From: an uncultured Planctomycetota bacterium
GTDB taxonomy: Bacteria; Planctomycetota; Planctomycetia; Gemmatales; Gemmataceae
Direction: 5' to 3'
Assembly: GCA_963849325.1 (NCBI GenBank)
Contig: CAWKHF010000004.1
Span: forward strand, 256,001-320,000
Length of the DNA: 64,000 nt
The notes beneath the pieces were generated by a model. It was not told the DNA's origin. It saw only the letters and a program-made list of their open reading frames with translations, and did no database searches. This document shows positions 1,498 through 63,319 of the stretch, in pieces. Position numbers and translations under genes: made by a program. Position 1 is the stretch's first letter, and the number at the start of each line of letters is the position of its first letter.

Positions 1498-3010
1498 CTA
1501 TTTGCTCTTGTTCTTCTTCTGGCCGGACTTGTCGTTGTCCGAGGCCGGGCCATTCTCCTTGTTGTCCGACGTTTTCGCTTTCTCTTCCTTGTCGGCGTCG
1601 GTGGAGGGTTCGTGCAGCACCTCGACGCGCATGCCGTCGCCCAGCCCCGAAGGTCGTTCCGACACGACCTGGTCCGATTTCTCCAGCCCCTTGCGAATGG
1701 TGGCCTCGATGCCGTCGTCGATGCCGGTCTCGACCTTGACTTCGTGGGCCCGTCCGTCGCGCACCACGTAGACGGAGCGGTCTTCGCCCTTGCCGCTGCC
1801 GAACAGGCACTTGGAGGGAATGCGCAGCCCTTTCTCGCGCCCCAGGTGGATGGTGAGGTCGCCGTACATGCCGTCCTCGAGCAGACCGTCGGGGTTGTCC
1901 AGGTCCACCTCGGTTCGCATGGTGCGCGTGTCATAGGCTTCCGAGTACGCCATGCGGGCGACGGTCCCTTTGAAGTGCTGGCTCTCATCGGGCAAGGTGG
2001 CGACGGTGAGAGTGACGGGATTTCCCACTTGGAGGTACGGCACGGCACGATCGGGCACCTGGACGATGATGCGCATCTTGTCGATGCGAGCGACGGCCAG
2101 CAGCGGCCTTGCTGCCCGGACGGGCGAAATCCTGGATGGGATCGCCGTCGTGGTAGTTTCGCTTGGTGACCACGCCGTCATAGGGCGAGACGATCTGCGT
2201 GTACTTGGCCCAGACTTCGGCCTGGTCCAGTTGGGCCTTGGCCACGCTCACGGCCGCTTCGGCATCGAGCACATCCGCGTTGGCCTGCGCGATGCCGGCC
2301 TTGGCCGATACGACCTCGGATTGGGCCGTGTTGACCGCCTTCTCGGCGGCGGTCTCCGCGGCCTGGGACGCCAGCAGCGCCTCCAGCTTTTCATCGAGCA
2401 GTTCTTGTTGGATGGACTTGGCCGCGACCAGTCCTTTGAAGCGTTCGTATTGCTTGTTGCGCAGCGACACCACGGCCTTGGCCTTTTTGACGTCGGACTT
2501 CGATTGCTCGTAGCGCGACTGGGCCGCTTCCTCGTCCGCTTGCGCCTTATTGACGCGGGCCTGCGCCGCCGTGACGTTGGCTCGCGCTTTCTTCAGATCG
2601 GCGCCGGCTTTTTCCACGGCCTTGAACAACTCGGGGGCGTACACTTCCGCCAGCACCTCTCCCTTTTTGGCCTTGTAGCCGATGTCCACCGGCGGCTGTC
2701 CTTCGCGATGGTCCTGGTTCTTGAGAAAACCCGTCACCTTCGAGGCCAGGTCGGCGAACTCAAACGACTGCACCGTCGCCGGCCGCCGCACCAGCCGCTC
2801 GACGCCGCCCTCCTTGGGATAAATGACCTTGACGCGCACCGGGGCCGCCTCGTGTTGCTTGCCGCCGCCGGAGCCATCTCCCTGTGCGGCCTCCTGCTTG
2901 CTCCGCCCGTGGAAATCGACGAAGTTTACCAGACCCGCCGCGAGGAGGATGGCGATTACCGCGCCCAAGCTGAACCAGGTGGTCTTCGGGTGTCGTTTGA
3001 ACCAACTCAT
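1498..3010 (-). CDS. RND periplasmic adaptor (membrane fusion protein), frameshifted near 2120
   Basis: ORFs 1985..3034 and 1498..2181: N-terminal TM, lipoyl-like half (DIGYKAKKGEVLAEV), coiled coil, TQIVSPYDGVVT, TRTMRTEVDLDNPDG. Confidence 0.85.
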
Positions 3011-3410
3011 GACTATATCCTCGTCTCCATCCAAGGCCGACCTCGGTGCCGGTCGCCATGGGCTTCAACGTGCTCCTGCGAATAGGGCGGTCGGGAGGAG
3101 AAAGGGGATGCGTGGTTGGTGCAGAAAGCTGCCTATTTCCAGGCGTTGGACTGCACACGGCCGGCATCGGAAAGATGGGTATCCACACCCCTTTGCCGCG
3201 ACGACCGCGATCCGCGGACACGTCTTCGGCAAGAACATGTGCAAATTGGATACCTATTATTGAGTTGTCTCGATGCGCCATCGCCAGACGGTGTGGAGAG
3301 GGGAGGCGCTGTCTCCTTTTCGTCGTTGCATCCACGTCCGGTTCGATTATCTTACGAGCCGGCCTCTGGTTGGCGTGAAGAACCGAGACTCAGGGGGAGA
3401 AGCATCCGTC

Positions 3411-5395
3411 ATGGTCCTCGCGGCCCGCACCGAACACAGTCCTGAGCTTCTGTCGCGTCTGTATCGCCAGATGCAGATCATTCGCCAGTGTGAGGAACAG
3501 TTGGCCCGGTCGCACCAGCGCGGCCTGGTCCACGGCGCCTGCCACACTTACGTCGGCCAGGAGGCCATCGCCGTCGGCGTCTGCGCTCACCTGCGTCCGG
3601 ATGACGCGGTCTTCAGCACCCACCGCGGCCACGGCCACGCCCTGGCCAAGGGACTGCCGCCGCGTCAGCTGATGGCCGAACTGTACGGCCGAGAGACGGG
3701 CTGCTCGCGCGGCCGGGGCGGCAGCATGCACCTGTTCGCTCCCGAAATCGGCCTGATGGGCACCAGCGGCATCGTCGGTCCTTGCATCCTCCAGGCCGCC
3801 GGCGCCGGCTACAGTTTCATGCTCCTCAAGACCGACCGCGTGGCCGTGGCCTTCTTCGGCGACGGCGCGGTCAACAACGGTGCCTTTCACGAGGGGCTGA
3901 ACCTGGCCGGCATCTGGAAGCTGCCGGTGCTGTTCGTCTGCGAGAACAACCAGTTCGCCACCGAGGTGCCGTTCGCCTATTCGGCCGGCAATCCCAGCGT
4001 CGCCTCGCGCGCCGCCTCCTACGGCCTGCCCGGTCACGAGGTAGACGGCAACGACGTCGAGGCGATTTACGAGGTCGCCGGCGAGGCGGTACGCCGCGCT
4101 CGTTCGGGCGGCGGCGCGACGCTGATCGAGTGCAAGACGTATCGCACCCGGCCGCACGCCGAGGGCATGGGCGACTTCACCTATCGCACGCGCGAGGAGG
4201 TCGAGGAGTGGAAGACGCGCTGTCCCCTCCGCCGTCTCCGCGAGGGAGGACCGGCCCTCGGCGGCCCTCGATACCATCGATGCCGAGGTAGCCCGGCTGA
4301 TCGCCGAGGCGCACGAGTTCGCCGAGAAAAGTGCCTGGCCCGACCCGCAAACCGCCGCCGCCCATGTTTACGACGAGTCGTCGATCCGCAAACCTTCCGA
4401 ACCTCCTCCATCCGCTGGCCGCGAAATCACCTGGATGAAGGCCACGCACGAAGCGCTCGCCAAGGAGATGGCCCGCAACCCGGCGATCTTCGTGCTCGGC
4501 GAGGGCATCGGCCAGCGCGGCGGCAACTTCCAGACAACCGAGGGACTGTACGCCCTGTACGGGCCGGAGCGGCTACGCGACACGCCCATCTGCGAGCGTG
4601 GCTTCGTCGGTCTGGCCTGCGGTGCCGCCATGACCGGCACGCGGCCGGTGGTCGATTTCATGTTCGCCGACTTCCTCCTCGATGCGGTCGGCGAAGTCCT
4701 CAACCAGATCGCCAAGATGCAGCTACATGTCGAGCGGTCGCATCGCCATGCCGATCCTGCTGCGCGGCTGCATCGGCATCGGCCACTCGGCGGCGACGCA
4801 TCATTCGGGTAATTACTATCCTTTATACGCCCATTTTCCCGGCCTTCGCGTCGTCGTGCCCTCGACGCCCGCCGACGCCAAGGGACTATTGACACGGGCA
4901 TTGCGCTGCGATGACCCGGTGCTGTTCCTGGAGCACCGCGAACTGCTGGCGACAAAAGGGCCGGTGCCGGAAGGCGATTACGAGATCGACTTCGGCCAGG
5001 CAGCCGTCGTCCGCGAGGGGCGGGATGCGACGGTGGTGGCACTGGCGCTAATGGTGCGGCGGACGCTGGAGGCATGTGAGCGGTTGGCGGCGCGGGGCGT
5101 CTCGGTGGAGGTCATCGACCCGCGAACGGTGTCGCCGCTGGACGCCGAGACGATCCTGCGTTCGGTGCGGAAGACCGGCCGGCTGCTGATCGTGGACGAG
5201 GCGTTCGCGCCGTTCGGCCTGGGGGCGGAGGTGGCGGCCCGCGTCATCGACGCCGGCTTCGACGACCTGGACGCGCCGATCCGCCGCCTGCACGGCGCGT
5301 TCACGCCCACGCCGTACAGTCCGACGCTGGAAAAAGCCGTGGTGCCGCAGGTCGAGGACATCGAGCAAGCTCTCGTCGATCTGCTGGCGGAGTGA
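3411..5395 (+). CDS. Fused 2-oxoacid/acetoin dehydrogenase E1 alpha+beta subunit, frameshifted near 4250 and 4720
   Basis: TPP motif GDGAVNNGAFHEGLN...ENNQF, GRGGSMH; beta part DTPICERGFVG and EVIDPRTVSPLD; spread over three ORFs. Confidence 0.85.
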
Positions 5396-56219: not shown

Positions 56220-58639
56220 GGCCCGTGTTGATTCTATCGACTCGCCGTCCCGGCTCACGCGGCACCGGCGGCTTAGGCTTTTCCTCATCGGGAATCCAGG
56301 CGGACTCCGCGACGATCTCCACCATCAGCTTACGGACATTGTAGCGATTGTCGGATACGAAGGACCGCCGCAGGTCCGACGAGCTTCGTGCAGGTCCGTA
56401 GGCACGGATCGGCTGCTTGACCAGGTAGTGGAACAGCTGCTCGACAAAGGCGTCGTGCGTCTCCTCGCTGTCGGCCAGGAACGCGGCCAGATCGCGGACG
56501 CCGGTGAACTTCCTCATCTTCGCCGCTGCGCGTCTGGTAGATGCCCGTGGCGTCGATGGGCCGCTCTTTTTCCTGGTCGCGGTAGCGGCCGATGGCGTCG
56601 AAGTGCTCCAGCGTGAAGCCGAGCGGGTTAATCATGCCGTGGCACGTCTGACACGCCTGCGGCCGCGTTTGCAAGCTCGACGCGCTCGCGCGTGGTCAGC
56701 CGTGGGTGCAGGTCCGGCGGCAACGGGGTGAAGGCCTCCGGCGGCGGCTGGAGCGTCCGGCCCAGGACGCTGCGCGACAGGAAGACGCCGCGATGGATCG
56801 GCGAACTGGTCGCCGTGTAGGCGAAGGTCGCCATCAGGTAGGGGTGCGTAAGCACGCCGGCACGCTCGCCGGCTTTCGCCGCGACCTTTCTGGAACGGCG
56901 CATCGGGCGGCAGATCGCCGCCGTAGAATCTGGCCAGCCGGCCGTTGAGATACAGGGAATCCGCGAGCAGCAGTTGGCGGAAGTCCGATGCCTCGCTCCA
57001 GAGCACGTCCTCCAGGAACAACTCCAGCGAGGTGCGCAGGTCCGAGGCGACCGCCTGAGTCGAAGCCGGGGATAGCTGTGCGGAGTCCTTGGACAGGTCG
57101 GGGACCTGATCGACCTTGCAGCCACTGCAGGAAGAACTCGCGGAGCTTGGCCCGGGTCCGCAGGTCGGCGACCATGCGCTCGGCCTGGTGCAGCCACCTG
57201 CTCGCGGGTGGCACAGCTCGGCCGCTCGCCGCCGCTTGCAGAAGCTCGGCGATCGGGCAGCGAATCCCACAGTCCGAAGGAGAGTCCGCGACGCCACGTC
57301 GTAAGCGTCTGGCCCGCCGCCAATCTCGCGGTAGAGGAAACGCGGCGACTTGAGGACGAGCAGCACAACGCGCTTGACGGCCGTTTCCAGATCGCGGGCG
57401 GCTTCGAATCTGGTGATCGACGTAGAGGCGCTTCTGCTCGTCGCGTGAGCGGCCGGCGAAACGCCCGTCTCGGCGAAGCGTACGACAGAACTCGCGGAGA
57501 CGCGCCTTGCGATCCGGCGGCATCGTCCGCGCACGCCGGCCAACTCCGCCAGGCGGGCGACGACGTAGTCCGCAACCTCGATGGCCGCATCGGTCGTGGC
57601 CTGTTCCCACGCCTTGGAGATCGACGTGCCGCGCTCGTAGCCGACGCTGCGGTCGTCCGGCGGAAACGGCGTGGCGACGACGAACGCAACGGGAGAGGCA
57701 GTTCGGCGTCAGGTTTCGCTGCGGGATCACCTCCGCCGTCCGCTGCGGCGGCTTCCACGCCAGCGCGATCGACGCCTTGACTTGCGGGCGGCTTGCCCTT
57801 CTTGTTCTTCGAGTCGTCCACGCCCTGCTTGGCCTTGGAGAACTCCAGCCGCAGCGGATAGACGCGCCCGCCCAGCAGGAAGATCGAGGCGCGATACTCG
57901 GTATCGTTGCCCGACTTCACCCAGGCGTCGATCAGCGGCCGTTTGCGTGTCGTTGACCCACAGCCGGGCGGCGTGCTCGGTGCGGACGATGAATTCGTAA
58001 CTCGCCGGTGTCCGGGGCCAGGACCGAGCCCGTCCAGCGGATCGAGAATTGATTGGCGTCGAACTTCTTGGGGTCCGGGCCGGACGTCGCCGAAGTCGAA
58101 GCGGACCTCGGGATCGACGCGCTCCAGGACGCGGTCGTTGCCGCGGAAGCGCCGGGACTTGAAATACTCGCCGCGCAGGCCGCGTTGCTGGTCCCAGTGG
58201 CTGGGCGTGCGGAAGCTGCCGATCAGGTCGGCGACGGCGTTGCCGATACTGGCGGACGGTGAGGCGCGACAGCTCGATGCGCGGCGGCTTGTTGCGGGCC
58301 TGCGCGGTCTTGGAGTAGAAGGCATCGTAGATGTAGGCGGCGACTTTCTGGGCGTCTTCGCCGCTGCATTTGTCGTCGGTGTCCTTGGGCATGGTCCGGG
58401 CGATGAGGCGGGTGAGCTGGGAAACGGAGCGATCCCCGGCCAGCGGACGCGGGTAATCATCAATCGGTGCCTTCTCCCGACGCTCCATGACACGAGGCGC
58501 ATTGCTGCTTGTAAATCTGTTCTCCGCTACGACCTTCCGCGGCGAGGACGCGGGGGGCCAGCATGCTCAGAGAGCACAGCAGGGCCATCCAGGGTAGGTG
58601 GCGGAGAGGGGACACGGTTGGCGGATTCGTGTGGATCAT
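56220..58639 (-). CDS. Cytochrome c-PA14-DUF1592/DUF1588 multidomain protein; heavily frameshifted, 3' end approximate
   Basis: Manual translation from 58639: MIHTN...GEQIYKQQCASCHG; PA14-like GLRGEYF; SPRFLYR; SSPIHRGVF; CQTCHGMINPLGF.LEHFDAIGR. Confidence 0.75.
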
Positions 58640-58997
58640 GGAGACCGATTCGGGTAGGCCGCTACGAAATCAGGAGGTCGGAAGGCAGGTCAACACTCAC
58701 CGAGGCGCGTCGTCCGCGAACTGGAGGGAAAAATGTCCGGGATGCGGCGCCGAGTGCTGATAAATAGTTTGAAGGCTCGGGGGACGAATGTCAAGGGGAG
58801 AGACGGAAAAGGTCCATTCCTCCCATCCCGTTGTTGCATCGACTGTCTGTTGCCGAAGAGAGACGAAGTTGGTAGGTGCCGCCAGCCGAGCGGCACGGCG
58901 GAACGATACAGCTATCCGTAACCGGCTCACGCGGAGCATGGCGTCGAAGCACGATACACCATCATTCACGTGGTCGGTCTGCTTGTATGTTCCATTT

Positions 58998-59160
58998 CAC
59001 TCCCGATTTCTTGTCGGGAGTATCCTCGACAGGGGAGTCGCGAGGAGGTCTTTCGGTCTGCTGAGGTACGACCTCTTGCTGCAGATTGACCCCTCCGCGT
59101 CGGACCCAGCGCTGGTTACATCTTGAGGCACTGACCTCTGATCACAAGCTTCCGCTCACG
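58998..59160 (+). ncRNA. IS110 bridge RNA (5' hairpin, target-binding loop, donor-binding loop)
   Basis: LTG TCGGTCTGCT 59053-59062, RTG GCTGCAG 59078-59084, LDG GTTACATCT 59115-59123, RDG ACAAG 59144-59148. All match the element flanks or ends. Confidence 0.8.
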
Positions 59161-59233
59161 CCGAGCTACGCCGGAGGAGCCTCGCGGCTACGGCCCCATC
59201 GTCTCCCTCTTCACTCCACATTCCGAGGTTCCC

Positions 59234-61042
59234 ATGCTACCACAACACGCTCCCGCTCCGCAATCGCCGCGACGCATCGGCGTCGGCATCGACACCTCCC
59301 GCTACGGCCATTACGCCGTCTTCCTCACGCGACGACCTCCAGCCCGCCGCCGACGAACTCTCCTTCCCCGAGTCCGCCGCCGGCTACGCCCTCTTCCGCC
59401 AACGCCTCGCAAGCGCATCGTCCAGCGCTACGGCGCCGTGCACTTCGTCGTCCGTCTCGACGTGGCCGGACCCGTATGCCGACAACCTGCTCCACTTCCT
59501 GCACCAACTCGGCCACGCCGCCAGCCGACGCCCGCCAACGCCGCCCGCCGTTGGCCCTCACCCTCTCCTGCGGCGATCCGCAACGCAACAAGAACTACCG
59601 CGCCGCCCTCTTCGGCAGCCAGAAGTCCGATCCCGTCGAGGCCCGCGCCGCCGCACGCTTCGCCCTCACCGAGCGAGCCACGCAGTGACAAGCCATTGTC
59701 CCTGCGAACTCCGCATCCTCCGCCAGGTCGCCGGCCGACTCCAGGCCGTCGTCCGCCAACGCACCCGCCTCCTCAACCAGTTCCATCATCTGCTGGCCTT
59801 GACCTTCCCCGAACTGGCCCTGCTCACCAAGGACCTCGCCGCCGGCTGGGTCCTCGAACTGGTCCACCGCTACCCACCGCCGCCGCGCCTGGCCCAGGCC
59901 ACGACCCGGCCGACCTGGCCGCCATCCCCTATCTGCCCGATGACCATGGCGACGCCGCTGCTCGCAACACGCCCAGCACCTCCATCGCCTCGCTGGACGG
60001 CGCGGCCGTCGAGGAGCTGGTGCGCGACCAGGTCCGCCAACTCCGCGACAGTCGGCGCGCGGCAAAAACGCCTGGAATACCTGCTGGTTTCCGCCTATCA
60101 CGCCCTGCCCCAGACCAACCACCTCGACACCATCCCCGGCATCGGCGCCGTCACGGCCGCCGTGCTGACCGCCTTCATCGTCGACATCGATCGCTTCGCC
60201 ACGCCGGGCAAGCTGGTCGCTTATTTCGGCGTCCTGCCCATCGAGGCGTCCAGCGGCGTGGACCGCGACGGCCAGGCCGCGTTCGCCGCGGCGTTGGGTC
60301 ATGAGCCGGCGCGGCAACGACCTGGTGCGTCGCTATCTGTGGATGGCGGCCTTGAGCGCCATCCGCTTCAACCCGGCGGTGCGGGCGTTGTACGCCCGTG
60401 TCGTGGCCAAGCATCCCCAGCACAAGGCGGTCGCCGTCGGCCACGCCATGCGCAAGCTGTTGCACCTGGTCTTCGCCATCTGCAAGAGCGGCCGGCCGTT
60501 CGACCCCGACCACTATCCCTGGCAGACGCCGGCTCACGTCGACGGAGAGTGACAATGACATGTCAGTGGATGCACCGAAGCCAGTGACAAGACCGTGTCA
60601 GTCGAAAGCCAGGCCGCGGGCCACAAGCCGGAAGCTGAGCCGGCTGCGGACAGTGGTCACCGCGGCCTGTGCCGACAGCGTAGCCGAGACGGCCGCGGTC
60701 GGCGAGAGCAACGCCGTCGATTTCGCCCACGTCAAGAGGCAACTGCCGCTGGCCCAGGTGCTCGATCAACTGGGTCTGTCGGCGCGCCTGCGCGGCAGCG
60801 GTCCGCAGCGCCGCGGTGCCTGTCCGCTGCATCGCGGCGATGGCCGCGGCCGGACGTTCAGCGTCAACCTGGAGGCCAACGTCTTCCAGTGCTTCGACAA
60901 GACGTGCGGTCAGAAGGGCGACGTGATCGACCTGTGGGCGGCGTTGCATGGCTTGTCGCTGCGGGAGGCGGCGTTGGACCTGGTGCGGACGTTTGGGCTG
61001 GAGCCTGCGCCACGCACCGGAACAGAGAAGAGGAACGGTTAA
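59234..61042 (+). CDS. IS110 recombinase (RuvC-like + Tnp20) with probable C-terminal CHC2 zinc-finger extension; multiple frameshifts
   Basis: IGVGIDTS, KSDPVEA, LDTIPGIGAVTAA, YFGVLPIEASSG, RRGNDLVRRYLW, AMRKLLH; then CPLH...CFDKTCGQKGDVIDL. Confidence 0.85.
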
Positions 61043-61204
61043 GGAACGGTTGACCGCGTCGGTGGAGAGAATCCGCCCTTGGGTCGGGGCCGTCCGCATG
61101 TGCGCAGACAGGACAGAGGAAACCGTTCTTACCGGCCGTCATCACGGGGACGGGGCTTGACATTCATCGTTACATCTGCAGCGGATTGTTCGGCGCTACC
61201 CCCT

Positions 61205-61684
61205 TCAGAAAACAAGAGGCTTACCGACCCCCAAGGAACACTCGACAAGCGCCGCCATCTGAGCGGCAAACTCACGGACCAACCCTGCCATCCCCTGCTG
61301 GACGCACGACATCGCTTGTAGCGCTCCCACCTCGGACGGCAAACTTTTCACCTCTTCGACGGCGAGGAAGTCTCCTGCATGAGTGCCATTGTACAGCACC
61401 TTGGAGAGCAGCAGCGGGAACGTCTCGGCCTGCCGCTCCAACTCCGCTCGCAGGGCGGCGACCAGCGCGATGTTGCCGATGCGGTGGTGCAGCAACACGC
61501 CCAGCTCGTGCTCGCAGGCGCGCTCGAGTTGCCATCGGTCAAAGGCGAGCTGGACCTCAAGGTCGTCGCTGCCGCAGAGCAGGCTCCCATCGGCCGAGAC
61601 GGACAGGTTACAGCCGGGCGGCGGTGGTTCTCGCAAGCGTCCCCGCTCGAAGCAGTCGCAGTACACAACCGCGTCCAACCCCAT
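61205..61684 (-). CDS. Hypothetical cassette-encoded protein (159 aa)
   Basis: MGLDAVVYCDCFERG...ACEHE...RIGNI...YNGTHAGD...KPLVF; fills the cassette tightly between the R box and attC. Confidence 0.75.
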   Translation of the reverse strand: MGLDAVVYCDCFERGRLREPPPPGCNLSVSADGSLLCGSDDLEVQLAFDRWQLERACEHELGVLLHHRIGNIALVAALRAELERQAETFPLLLSKVLYNGTHAGDFLAVEEVKSLPSEVGALQAMSCVQQGMAGLVREFAAQMAALVECSLGVGKPLVF

Positions 61685-61860
61685 CTCTGCTTCGCTCCGC
61701 CTCGCCGAACAGTGATTAGTCTGAGGCGGGGCGTCTCGCGGCCTCATTCGTGGTGGTCCCTCGTGGACCCCGTTCGGAAGTTTGCCCTTCCTCACGCCAC
61801 GTTGCGCCTCCGCCGGCCTCCCACGGTTGTCCCACGAACTCCTCTATTCTGAAGGCTCCC

Positions 61861-63319
61861 ATGTCCCGGCACAAGCACCAAACCGCCTCGTCCGCCCCCA
61901 GGCAACCCGCCACGCCCGTGGCACCGCAACGCCGCCGTCACACGCCCACTCCCGCCGACGACGGCTACCACGAATCCCTGCCCATTCAGCACGGCCACGC
62001 GGCCGGCATCGACGTGGGCTCACGCACGCACGGGGTCGCTGCCCCCGCAGCAGACGGCACCCTGGACGTGGCCTGCTTCGACACCTACACCGAGGGACTA
62101 CGCGCCCTGGCCGCCTGGCTCCATGCCCACGCGGTCACCACCGTGGCCCTGGAGGCCACCGGCATTTACGGCGATCCCCTCTTCGATCTGCTCCCAAGCC
62201 AGGGCTTTGACGTCATCCATGTCAACCCCGCCTACACCGCCCAACTCCAGGGACGGCCCAAGACCGACAAGCTCGACTGCCAGTGGATCCAACGCCTGCA
62301 CGCCCACGGCCTGCTGCCCGCCTCCTTTCGGCCCGCCGCCGATGTCGCCGTACTCCGCGTCTACCTCCGTCAGCGGGCCGAACTCGTCCGCGCCGGTGCC
62401 CGACACATCCAGCACATGCAGAAGGCGTTGGAGTTAATGAACGTCAAGCTGACCGAGGTGGTCAGCGACGTGACGAGCTGGACCGGCCTGAAGATCATCC
62501 AGGCCATCCTGGACGGTCAACGCGACCCGCTGACGCTGGCGCGACTGCGGAACAAGCACTGCAAGAACAGCATCGATACCTTCGCGCGTGCCCTGCAGGG
62601 CAGTTGGCGTGACGAACACGTGCTGACGTTGCGGCAGGCGTTAGCATCGTGGCAGCACTATCAGGCTCAGCAACGGGAGTTGGAGGAAGCGATCGCCCGC
62701 CACCTCCATCGGATGAAAAAGACGACCGCGCTGCCGCCGCTGCTGCCCAAGCCGCGACGGCGGAGCCGCGCGGCCAACGAACCACGCTTCGACGTGCGAA
62801 CCGCCCTGTACTACGTGACCGGCGTGGACTTGACCGAGTTGGACGGGATCGCCGACGTGACGGCCTTGGTGGTCGTCAGCGAGATCGGCCTGGACATGAG
62901 CCGTTTCCCCTCCGCGAAGCACTTCTGCGCCTGGTTGGGGTTGTGCCCGCGGGTGAAGAAATCCGGAGGTCGGGTCTTGTCGAGTCGGACGCGCAAGGGC
63001 AAGGGCGCCGCGGCGCGGGCCTTGTGTCTGGCGGCGCGGTCGTTGTGGCGCAGTCCAACGGCGTTGGGTGCTTTGCTGCGGCGGTGGAAGGCCCGCTTGG
63101 GGGCGCCTGCGGCGATAACCGCGGTAGCGCACCGAGCTGGCTCGGCTGCTGTATCAAACCTTGAAGACGGGGGCGTTGCCGGCCCGCGAGACGGCGGCGG
63201 CGTATGCGGCCCGCCAGCGGGAGCAAGCGGTGGCAACGTTGCGGAAGAAGGCGTTGCGTCTGGGTCTGCGCGTGGTAGCGACGAGTGAAATCGTGGAGAG
63301 CGTAGCGTCGCCGCCATGA
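61861..63319 (+). CDS. IS110-family transposase (second clade), frameshift near 63133
   Basis: AAGIDVG, ALEATGIY, KTDKLDCQWIQRLH, LDGIADVTA, WLGLCPRVKKSGGR; continues ...LARLLYQTLKTG...SPP*. Confidence 0.9.

Follow-up and report, generated by a model that had tools for sequence, protein, structure and literature searches.

A planctomycete IS110-group insertion sequence with a bridge RNA very probably set to integron attC sites

The window analyzed here, 64,000 nucleotides of an uncultured Planctomycetota genome (contig 4, positions 256001 to 320000, of an 8.16-Mb assembly in 14 contigs that is 85% complete; GCA_963849325.1), contains an insertion sequence of the IS110 group at window positions 58984 to 61175 on the + strand, 2192 bp in length. 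Read from left to right, the locus consists of the larger part of a split repeat (58898 to 58983, +), which ends in a two-base CT (58982 to 58983); a 5′ noncoding end (58984 to 59170) that encodes a structured RNA of ~180 nucleotides (nt) upstream of the recombinase gene; the recombinase gene itself (59234 to 60552, +), of the DEDD/RuvC-like plus Tnp_20 type, which tblastn and three-frame translation place in pieces over several frames; an open frame (60398 to 61042, +) with a C-terminal CHC2 (DnaG-type) zinc ribbon (Pfam PF01807, E 1e-8); a right end (61043 to 61175, +); and a second CT followed by the short remainder of the repeat (61176 to 61194, +). We consider it very probable that bridge-RNA-guided recombination mobilizes this insertion sequence, of which the window holds one copy, and that its guides are set to the attC site of an integron, much as a sequence-only reading, made from the letters of the window without database searches, had proposed.

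Related loci were fetched from species genomes (12) and from metagenomes (80, the best of 193 confirmed relatives), giving 92 in all. Eleven of the 12 loci from species genomes bear labels of Planctomycetota lineages, chiefly Gemmataceae and Gemmatales; the remaining one is labelled Alcaligenaceae. The ends of the window copy were set by the relatives that have both ends; 65 loci retain both, and 61 of these span 2095 to 2215 bp. The two-base core is CT at both junctions of the window copy (58982 to 58983 and 61176 to 61177), and among the relatives the left-junction core is CT in 57 of 70 loci and GT in 13, while right junctions read CT in every locus of the family table. A search for terminal or subterminal inverted repeats returned a best inverted match of 7/8, which was equalled in 120 of 300 shuffles, and we take such repeats to be absent. 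The right end carries a conserved hairpin (CCGTC...GACGG), a −35-like TTGACA (61157 to 61162) and the terminus GTTACAT, which is identical in 71 of 72 loci. When the two ends are joined through one core, TTGACA stands 17 nt from TATGTT (58986 to 58991), and this geometry (TTGACA/T-17 nt-TATGTT) recurs across the joined ends of 64 of 65 loci; the conserved motif pair fits the known junction promoter of the family and would, by analogy, have the same activity.

The structured left end

A profile of the left end was found in 86 of the 92 related loci. We aligned the window sequence with 70 of 74 full-length profile matches (71 sequences), having excluded L020, L051, L085 and L086 for their large insertions, and folded the alignment with RNAalifold. 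The consensus consists of a 5′ stem-loop, a small second hairpin and then two internal loops, each with a distal hairpin. It has 38 pairs, 19 of which show changes on both sides. Paired cells make up 94.5% on the consensus versus 89.4% in shuffles, and cells changed on both sides number 142 versus 42.1 in shuffles, none of 500 of which reached 142; a control in which partners were slid by 1 to 3 columns gave only 19 to 54. The compensatory changes are located in the 5′ stem-loop and in the two basal stems, whereas one inner helix predicted in the second loop is invariant and hence uninformative. Folding across homologues, the check that had been proposed for the left end, thus yields stems that covary.

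In the 5′ stem-loop (ACTCCCGA / TCGGGAGT; 58999 to 59021, +), 58999 to 59006 pair with 59014 to 59021, and all six pairs of this helix (helix 1) vary on both sides. The hairpin named in the sequence-only reading is therefore a real helix, although it lies one base off the position implied there. The target-binding loop (59040 to 59098, +; helices 3 and 4) is closed by a basal stem of 59040 to 59050 with 59088 to 59098 and holds, in order, a left target guide (LTG, 59054 to 59062), a distal hairpin (59063 to 59075) and a right target guide (RTG, 59078 to 59084). The donor-binding loop (59100 to 59164, +; helices 5 and 7), with a basal stem of 59100 to 59105 with 59159 to 59164, holds a left donor guide (LDG, 59115 to 59123), a distal hairpin (59125 to 59138) as well as a right donor guide (RDG, 59144 to 59148), to which AT at 59141 to 59142 may also belong, with one C bulged.

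This arrangement resembles that of IS621 and ISCro4 (Durrant et al. 2024; PDB 8wt6, 9t56), in which a 5′ bridge RNA has a target loop and a donor loop. The part of Durrant et al. 2024 available to us gives the guide order, LTG and RTG followed by LDG and RDG, together with the strand rules for IS621, and describes an LTG identical to the top strand and an RTG complementary to it, as here. The assignment of an IS621-type layout agrees with that source in both order and strandedness, and the two loops with their distal hairpins belong to the consensus fold, whose stems show covariation. Also shared are the CT core, an LTG of 9 nt, the lack of inverted repeats, the DEDD and Tnp_20 domains and a conserved serine. 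Differences are an RTG of 7 nt, a natural target that is an attC arm and a first target-core base that may be G here.

Guides, flanks and ends

The sequence-only reading was built on four string matches between the two loops and the borders of the element, and a script check finds each of them exact and in place. TCGGTCTGCT is present at 59053 to 59062 and at 58974 to 58983, on the left flank plus core; GCTGCAG (59078 to 59084) is the reverse complement of 61176 to 61182, the core plus right flank; GTTACATCT is present at 59115 to 59123 and at 61169 to 61177, the right end plus core; and ACAAG (59144 to 59148) is the reverse complement of 58982 to 58986, the core plus left end. In the 64-kb window, the 10-mer TCGGTCTGCT occurs only at its two predicted places (0.28 expected; at least two in 3 of 100 shuffles), as does the 9-mer GTTACATCT (0.06 expected; 0 of 100 shuffles). 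The 7-mer GCTGCAG is not significant alone, with 9 window matches versus 14.2 expected, and the 5-mer ACAAG is too short for a chance test, so both of these rely on evidence from the family.

That evidence came from dealing the guides out among the loci in 10,000 shuffles, with 70 loci for the left flank and 71 for the right. LTG and left flank match at 532 of 700 positions versus 490.9 in shuffles, and RTG and right flank at 478 of 497 versus 454.1; the observed values were reached by 0 of 10,000 shuffles in either case, and the covariation persists when the comparison is restricted to unique guide-flank pairs. The guides of the first loop thus covary with the insertion flanks. In 16 loci the RTG differs from the majority; the flank compensates exactly in 10 (L015, L037, L044, L063, L066, L088, L092, L098, L100 and L101) and does not in 6. 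For example, L015 has GCCGCAG with CT-GCGGC, and L101 has GCGGCAG with CT-GCCGC. Another 13 loci have a one-base variant flank despite a majority RTG. Variants of the LTG include L017 (CGAGCCGCT, with flank GGAGCCGCT), L076 and L085. Agreement with the flank at the first base of the LTG as originally proposed (T, 59053) is confined to 5 of 70 loci, so we place the guide at 9 nt, 59054 to 59062: that part of the proposed 10-nt guide stands, and the family comparison makes the tenth match, seen in the window, a coincidence.

On the donor side, the ends hardly vary. In the window and in 35 of 72 loci, the LDG is an exact match to the right end together with the core. A discontiguous RDG pattern is mentioned in the text of Durrant et al. 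2024 that we could consult, and the conserved AT before CACAAG could here lengthen the RDG pairing to CTTGTAT with one C bulged.

A quite different account would make the four matches by-products of insertion and the left end a mere leader, with the protein, for example through its zinc ribbon, picking the target. Conservation of the targets is strong enough that most guides simply share it, two of the four matches are not significant by themselves, and the clade does have an additional domain of a DNA-binding type. We find this account scarcely credible, since variant guides are matched by variant flanks that lie outside the element, covarying stems enclose the loops in which the guides lie and the layout equals one demonstrated experimentally for IS621 (Durrant et al. 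2024, in the portion seen).

Under the preferred reading, that of a bridge-RNA-guided element, and by analogy with IS621 and IS110 biology, the element would excise as a circle, and its joined ends would supply a promoter (TTGACA, 17 nt, TATGTT) for both the RNA and the recombinase. The first loop carries the target guides, the LTG being CGGTCTG plus CT, identical to the + strand of the target, and the RTG the complement of CT plus GCAGC; the second carries the donor guides for the joined ends GTTACAT-CT-TGT.... The RNA would bridge circle junction and attC, and the serine recombinase would exchange strands at CT. The known bridge-RNA mechanism is left unchanged by these findings.

The split attC site

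The left flank belongs to a repeat of ~110 to 120 nt, of which this genome has 37 copies, isolated or in pairs 0.7 to 3.9 kb apart; across the genus the target repeat is ~97 to 120 nt long and conserved. We searched for integron integrases with the model TIGR02249 (cut-off 265 bits), which 7 of 31 related genomes exceed, including two of the same genus. At one such locus of the same genus (L108 in genome G006), five copies of the repeat stand 550 to 690 bp apart, in a single orientation, directly beside an integrase that scores 427 bits. The array diverges from the integrase gene, and each of its units contains one open frame, on the strand that leads away from the integrase; two further integrase contigs (L109 and L111) likewise carry a repeat array. 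Because of the orientation of the array, the + strand of the window corresponds to the bottom strand of attC.

Folded as DNA in the strand equivalent to the window + strand, the L108 repeat (z −4.4) has a 7-bp R stem (GCCGAAC/GTTCGGC), unpaired spacers of 5 + 5 nt and, around a variable center, an L stem whose 3′ arm has two single-base bulges, a T and a C. Its order of R″ (7), spacer (5), 3 nt, bulge, 6 nt and bulge equals the spacing of the aadA7 attC; one extrahelical base is C here versus G in an aadA7-type site. Some chromosomal integrons carry homogeneous attC repeats, such as the Vibrio VCRs. The repeat is like the attC of chromosomal integrons as generally described in that R″ and R′ boxes are followed by spacers that do not pair, by L boxes whose bottom strand bears two extrahelical bases and by a variable center, and it is unlike the usual ones in its R box (GCCGAAC/GTTCGGC) and, in this genome, in that the sites are scattered and no integrase was found.

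By comparison with the intact L108 sites, the left part of the split site in the window (58898 to 58983) consists of an R box, GCGGAAC (58898 to 58904), where the L108 boxes GCCGAAC and GTTCGGC pair perfectly, followed by a degenerate 5′ arm, a variable center and a 3′ arm that ends in ...GGTCGGTCTG, CT; an nhmmer profile of attC matches 58918 to 58983 (E 6.4e-12). To the right of the element, the core CT is followed by GCAGC (the end of the L″ arm), the spacer GGATT and the R box GTTCGGC (61188 to 61194). The L″ arm of the attC sites in the chromosomal integrons of this planctomycete group is the 14-bp target, CGGTCTG-CT-GCAGC, and its core lies between the two extrahelical bases. Exact empty copies of this 14-mer number two in the genome, both within attC repeats (0.2 expected). 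Of 42 right flanks in the family, 31 have GTT at a fixed offset.

A sequence profile of attC from this genome recognizes only 13 of 63 left flanks of the relatives, and these sites being too lineage-specific for such a profile, we used a structural test of the arms instead. Among the 47 relatives with a left flank of at least 100 nt, and with up to 2 mismatches of 13 allowed, the complement of the split arm lies 60 to 73 nt upstream in 32 once the two bulged bases are removed (0.19 loci by chance) and in 0 of 47 when they are kept; the arms vary together between loci. Judged by the array beside the integrase, by the fold and by the arms, the flanking repeat is the attC of a chromosomal integron of the genus, and the proposal that the target is the bottom strand of attC on its L″ side is borne out. 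Homologues, too, are found in attC sites, in that the split arm has its complement in those 32 relatives.

The 37 repeats could instead be structured repeats of another kind, similar to repetitive extragenic palindromes or terminators, so that the element targets nothing more than a repeated hairpin. They are scattered singly or in pairs, no integrase of this genome passes the cut-off, the R box is one base off the consensus, and an open frame beside the repeat is only weakly enriched (17 of 37 sites versus 9 of 37 control positions, a crude comparison in a genome of 65% G+C). A regular array beside a full integrase (427 versus 265 bits) in a genome of the same genus, two further contigs with the same association, one open frame per unit and an attC fold with two bulged bases leave this explanation a very slim chance.

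Several observations nonetheless weigh against an element guided to attC, and we set them out together. In the window's genome, at 85% completeness, no integron integrase passes the cut-off (best 85 bits versus 265). The R box of attC has the consensus RYYYAAC / GTTRRRY, from which the R′ box GTTCGGC departs by one base. A partner of the R box at no more than 1 mismatch is present in 13 of 42 sites versus ~7 by chance, which is a weak excess. The window's own attC is degenerate, the partner of its 3′ arm not having been found; a replacement of part of its 5′ arm makes it fail the arm test. On the side of the guides, the match to the flank is poor at L010 (5 of 10 positions) and also at L042, L047 and L062. 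The core within the LTG is GT in 28 loci, and the left junction reads GT in just 12 of these: of the 13 loci with a GT core at the left junction, 12 have GGT in the LTG, and 16 more loci with GGT have CT. In 37 of 72 loci the LDG is not identical to the right end with its core; 18 loci differ at the last core base and 10 have A to G, where G-T pairing is still possible, and the right terminus, being nearly invariant, offers the donor guides no variation to follow. A tblastn search with the intact paralogue P0001 meets the window gene in pieces, in frames 2, 3, 1 and 2. A scan of 58000 to 62000 against Rfam, with E up to 1, matched no family, and the sequencing runs listed as containing the stretch comprise 20 DNA runs, each with a share of at most 0.10, and no RNA run.

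The GT cores at left junctions suggest targets whose first core base differs from that of the donor, and a tolerance of a GT target core is, possibly, a new trait of this clade. New in any case is a large planctomycete clade within the IS110 group whose target is the L″ arm of attC; its lineage is a large, undescribed soil-bacterial branch of a known family. With more than 80 loci, it offers a natural and populous case of a bridge RNA in the IS110 group whose target is a structured recombination site. An insertion splits the attC and should block excision of that cassette. Such attC-splitting insertions should freeze cassettes, which bears on the decay of the chromosomal integrons of soil Planctomycetota into scattered sites.

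Recombinase, zinc ribbon and neighboring elements

The window copy is the only full-length copy in its genome. A second copy, on contig 7 (L002, G000:C7:282067-286974), is 89% identical and lacks the first 265 nt, hence the left end and bridge RNA, and has an intact 608-amino-acid (aa) frame (1633 to 3459, −). Its right flank holds a DUF29 cassette gene (PF01724), the frame of which continues into the right end of the element. A solo right end of 74 bp is present on contig 6, a short footprint on contig 12 and a left-end stump of ~70 nt on contig 10 (G000:C10:225719-225790). This stump lies in an attC with the canonical R box GCCTAAC and is truncated within the target loop by a different palindromic repeat (CCCGTTCCCACGCGGAACGTGGGAA...); contig 10 also has a 70-nt match to the coding part of the zinc ribbon (L003). 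The sequence GTTACAT-CT-GCAGC is common to the four right junctions seen in this genome. In Gemmataceae, two internally deleted copies, of 1277 and 1100 bp (L019, 2788 to 4064, and L020, 2669 to 3768), keep both ends and the left-end RNA and may be nonautonomous derivatives; L020 has an additional solo right end at 84 to 134.

The window copy is a relic and by itself probably inert: it has an intact RNA and two intact ends, but its gene carries several frameshifts. The frame with the ribbon (60398 to 61042) is separated from the recombinase by a frameshift in the window and fused to it in frame in the contig 7 paralogue. Since that copy has an intact gene and no RNA, and the window copy has RNA and ends and a broken gene, the two are complementary, and cooperation in trans is possible in principle. 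Assembly indel errors could also account for the frameshifts of the window gene, since in one other assembly L015 and L016 have five in-frame stops each, which reflect either parallel decay or indel errors typical of long-read assembly; against this, the contig 7 copy in the window's own assembly is intact.

The 608-aa paralogue contains PF01548, PF02371 and, at its C terminus, PF01807. Its closest solved proteins are the transposases of IS621 (E 3e-14) and ISCro4 (1.6e-12), followed in the PDB by the zinc-binding domain of DnaG primase (7.8e-5), and it retains the serine aligned to the ESG motif of IS621. Similarity to IS621 and ISCro4 is detectable over the Tnp domain only. The recombinases of this clade have ~596 to 608 aa versus 328 and 341 aa in the two solved chains, and they add a linker predicted to lack secondary structure and the CHC2 ribbon. 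An AlphaFold2 model of a 599-aa paralogue, built on an 11-row alignment, reached a mean predicted local distance difference test (pLDDT) score of 49.9 and a predicted template modeling score of 0.27, with only the zinc ribbon (~490 to 590) at a pLDDT of 70 to 84 and residues 427 to 490 without predicted structure, a model too poor for a fold search.

Among 8000 candidates scored, 2134 related proteins reached an E value of 1e-10 or better, and 117 of the 120 matches listed have all three domains (the IS110 pair and CHC2). In a search with the last 110 residues, 2757 proteins, each representing a cluster at 50% identity, reached E 0.001 or better; of 32 proteins drawn from the best 150 ribbon matches and scanned with Pfam, 23 have an IS110-family domain as well, 2 are primase-like, 1 is a chimera and 6 have the ribbon only. 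Across these proteins, the fusion is a feature of the clade, and the joining of a primase-type zinc ribbon to its recombinase is new; our search of the literature returned no paper mentioning both IS110 and CHC2. The ribbon is absent from the two solved bridge recombinases, and the clade offers enzyme engineers a natural variant.

In primases, the DnaG-type zinc ribbon reads single-stranded template DNA. In the recombinase, what the ribbon recognizes could be a replication fork, or else an attC hairpin in extruded or single-stranded form. That it works there as a structure sensor, in a clade that also accepts a GT target core against a CT donor core, is a joint reading that we advance tentatively and consider unlikely. 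If true, RNA-guided insertion would be tied to the moments at which attC folds, and this would be a structure-sensing bridge recombinase.

RNA-guided targeting of attC has been described for the IS1111-attC group (ISKpn4, ISPst6 and ISPa25), which has its seekRNA downstream of the transposase gene and subterminal inverted repeats (Siddiquee et al. 2024, as far as the text was available). The present element is like that group, as portrayed there, in being an RNA-guided DEDD element whose insertions share a single orientation and a fixed position close to an end of attC, and unlike it in having the guide RNA upstream of the gene and no subterminal inverted repeats. On both counts it is of the IS110 rather than the IS1111 type, as proposed from the window alone. 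Group IIC-attC introns form another mobile lineage specialized for attC (PMC3001079, seen in part); unlike the present element, they are retroelements with a ribozyme and work by an unrelated mechanism.

The same genome carries an IS1111-like element of 1837 bp, at L115 (G000:C7:540300-542500) and at G000:C12:879968-881804, with a 349-aa IS110-family recombinase, noncoding regions of 89 nt on the 5′ side and ~700 nt on the 3′ side and a 97-nt internal tandem duplication. It inserts directly after ...GCAGCGCCTGG of the same attC repeats, at the R″-box junction, 11 nt from the site used by the zinc-ribbon element, and at L011 and C12:1471974 both elements occupy one attC, 11 nt apart. Its recombinase is 20% identical to the zinc-ribbon paralogue over 169 residues. 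In one genome, attC sites are thus targeted at different positions by at least two very different RNA-guided lineages.

The preference for attC might have been inherited, the zinc-ribbon element being either a divergent member of the IS1111-attC group or a descendant of an attC-targeting ancestor common to both. The two groups share the DEDD and Tnp_20 recombinase, both insert into attC, and an IS1111-like element resides in the same repeats of this genome. We regard such inheritance as highly unlikely, given a guide RNA that is upstream here and downstream in IS1111 members (Siddiquee et al. 2024, in the available text), the lack of subterminal inverted repeats, an insertion point in the L″ arm rather than at the R″-box junction of the co-resident element and the mere 20% identity of that element's recombinase. 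An origin independent of the IS1111-attC group is what we infer from architecture, insertion point and identity, and the co-resident element supports, without proving, two independent routes to attC. Of the proposal that the element independently targets attC, the targeting is supported; the independence is suggested by these three comparisons and not by a phylogeny.

On the far side of the split site, a cassette-like open frame occupies 61205 to 61795 (−), with its stop ~10 nt before the R″ box of attC and a true start that may lie below 61704; the element is antisense to this cassette gene, for which a Pfam scan gave no family. The frame adjoins a second, unrelated IS110-family element (window 61716 to 63300), with a 512-aa frame at 61750 to 63288 (+) that has PF01548 and PF02371 and no zinc ribbon. 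Its repeated left part begins ~5 nt past GCCGAAC (61704 to 61710), which is like an attC R box; the remainder of an attC was looked for beyond the element, and none was found there. Copies ~67% identical to this element are present at C5:67806, C1:444512 and C5:1040823, and its left part has copies of 91 to 94% identity at C5:953704 and C12:511475. Outside the window, at G000:C1:448400-453100, a repeat of ~36 nt (...CTTCAATGCGGCCACGGCCCGAAGACCGTGGAGAAC) recurs at regular spacing and looks like a CRISPR array.

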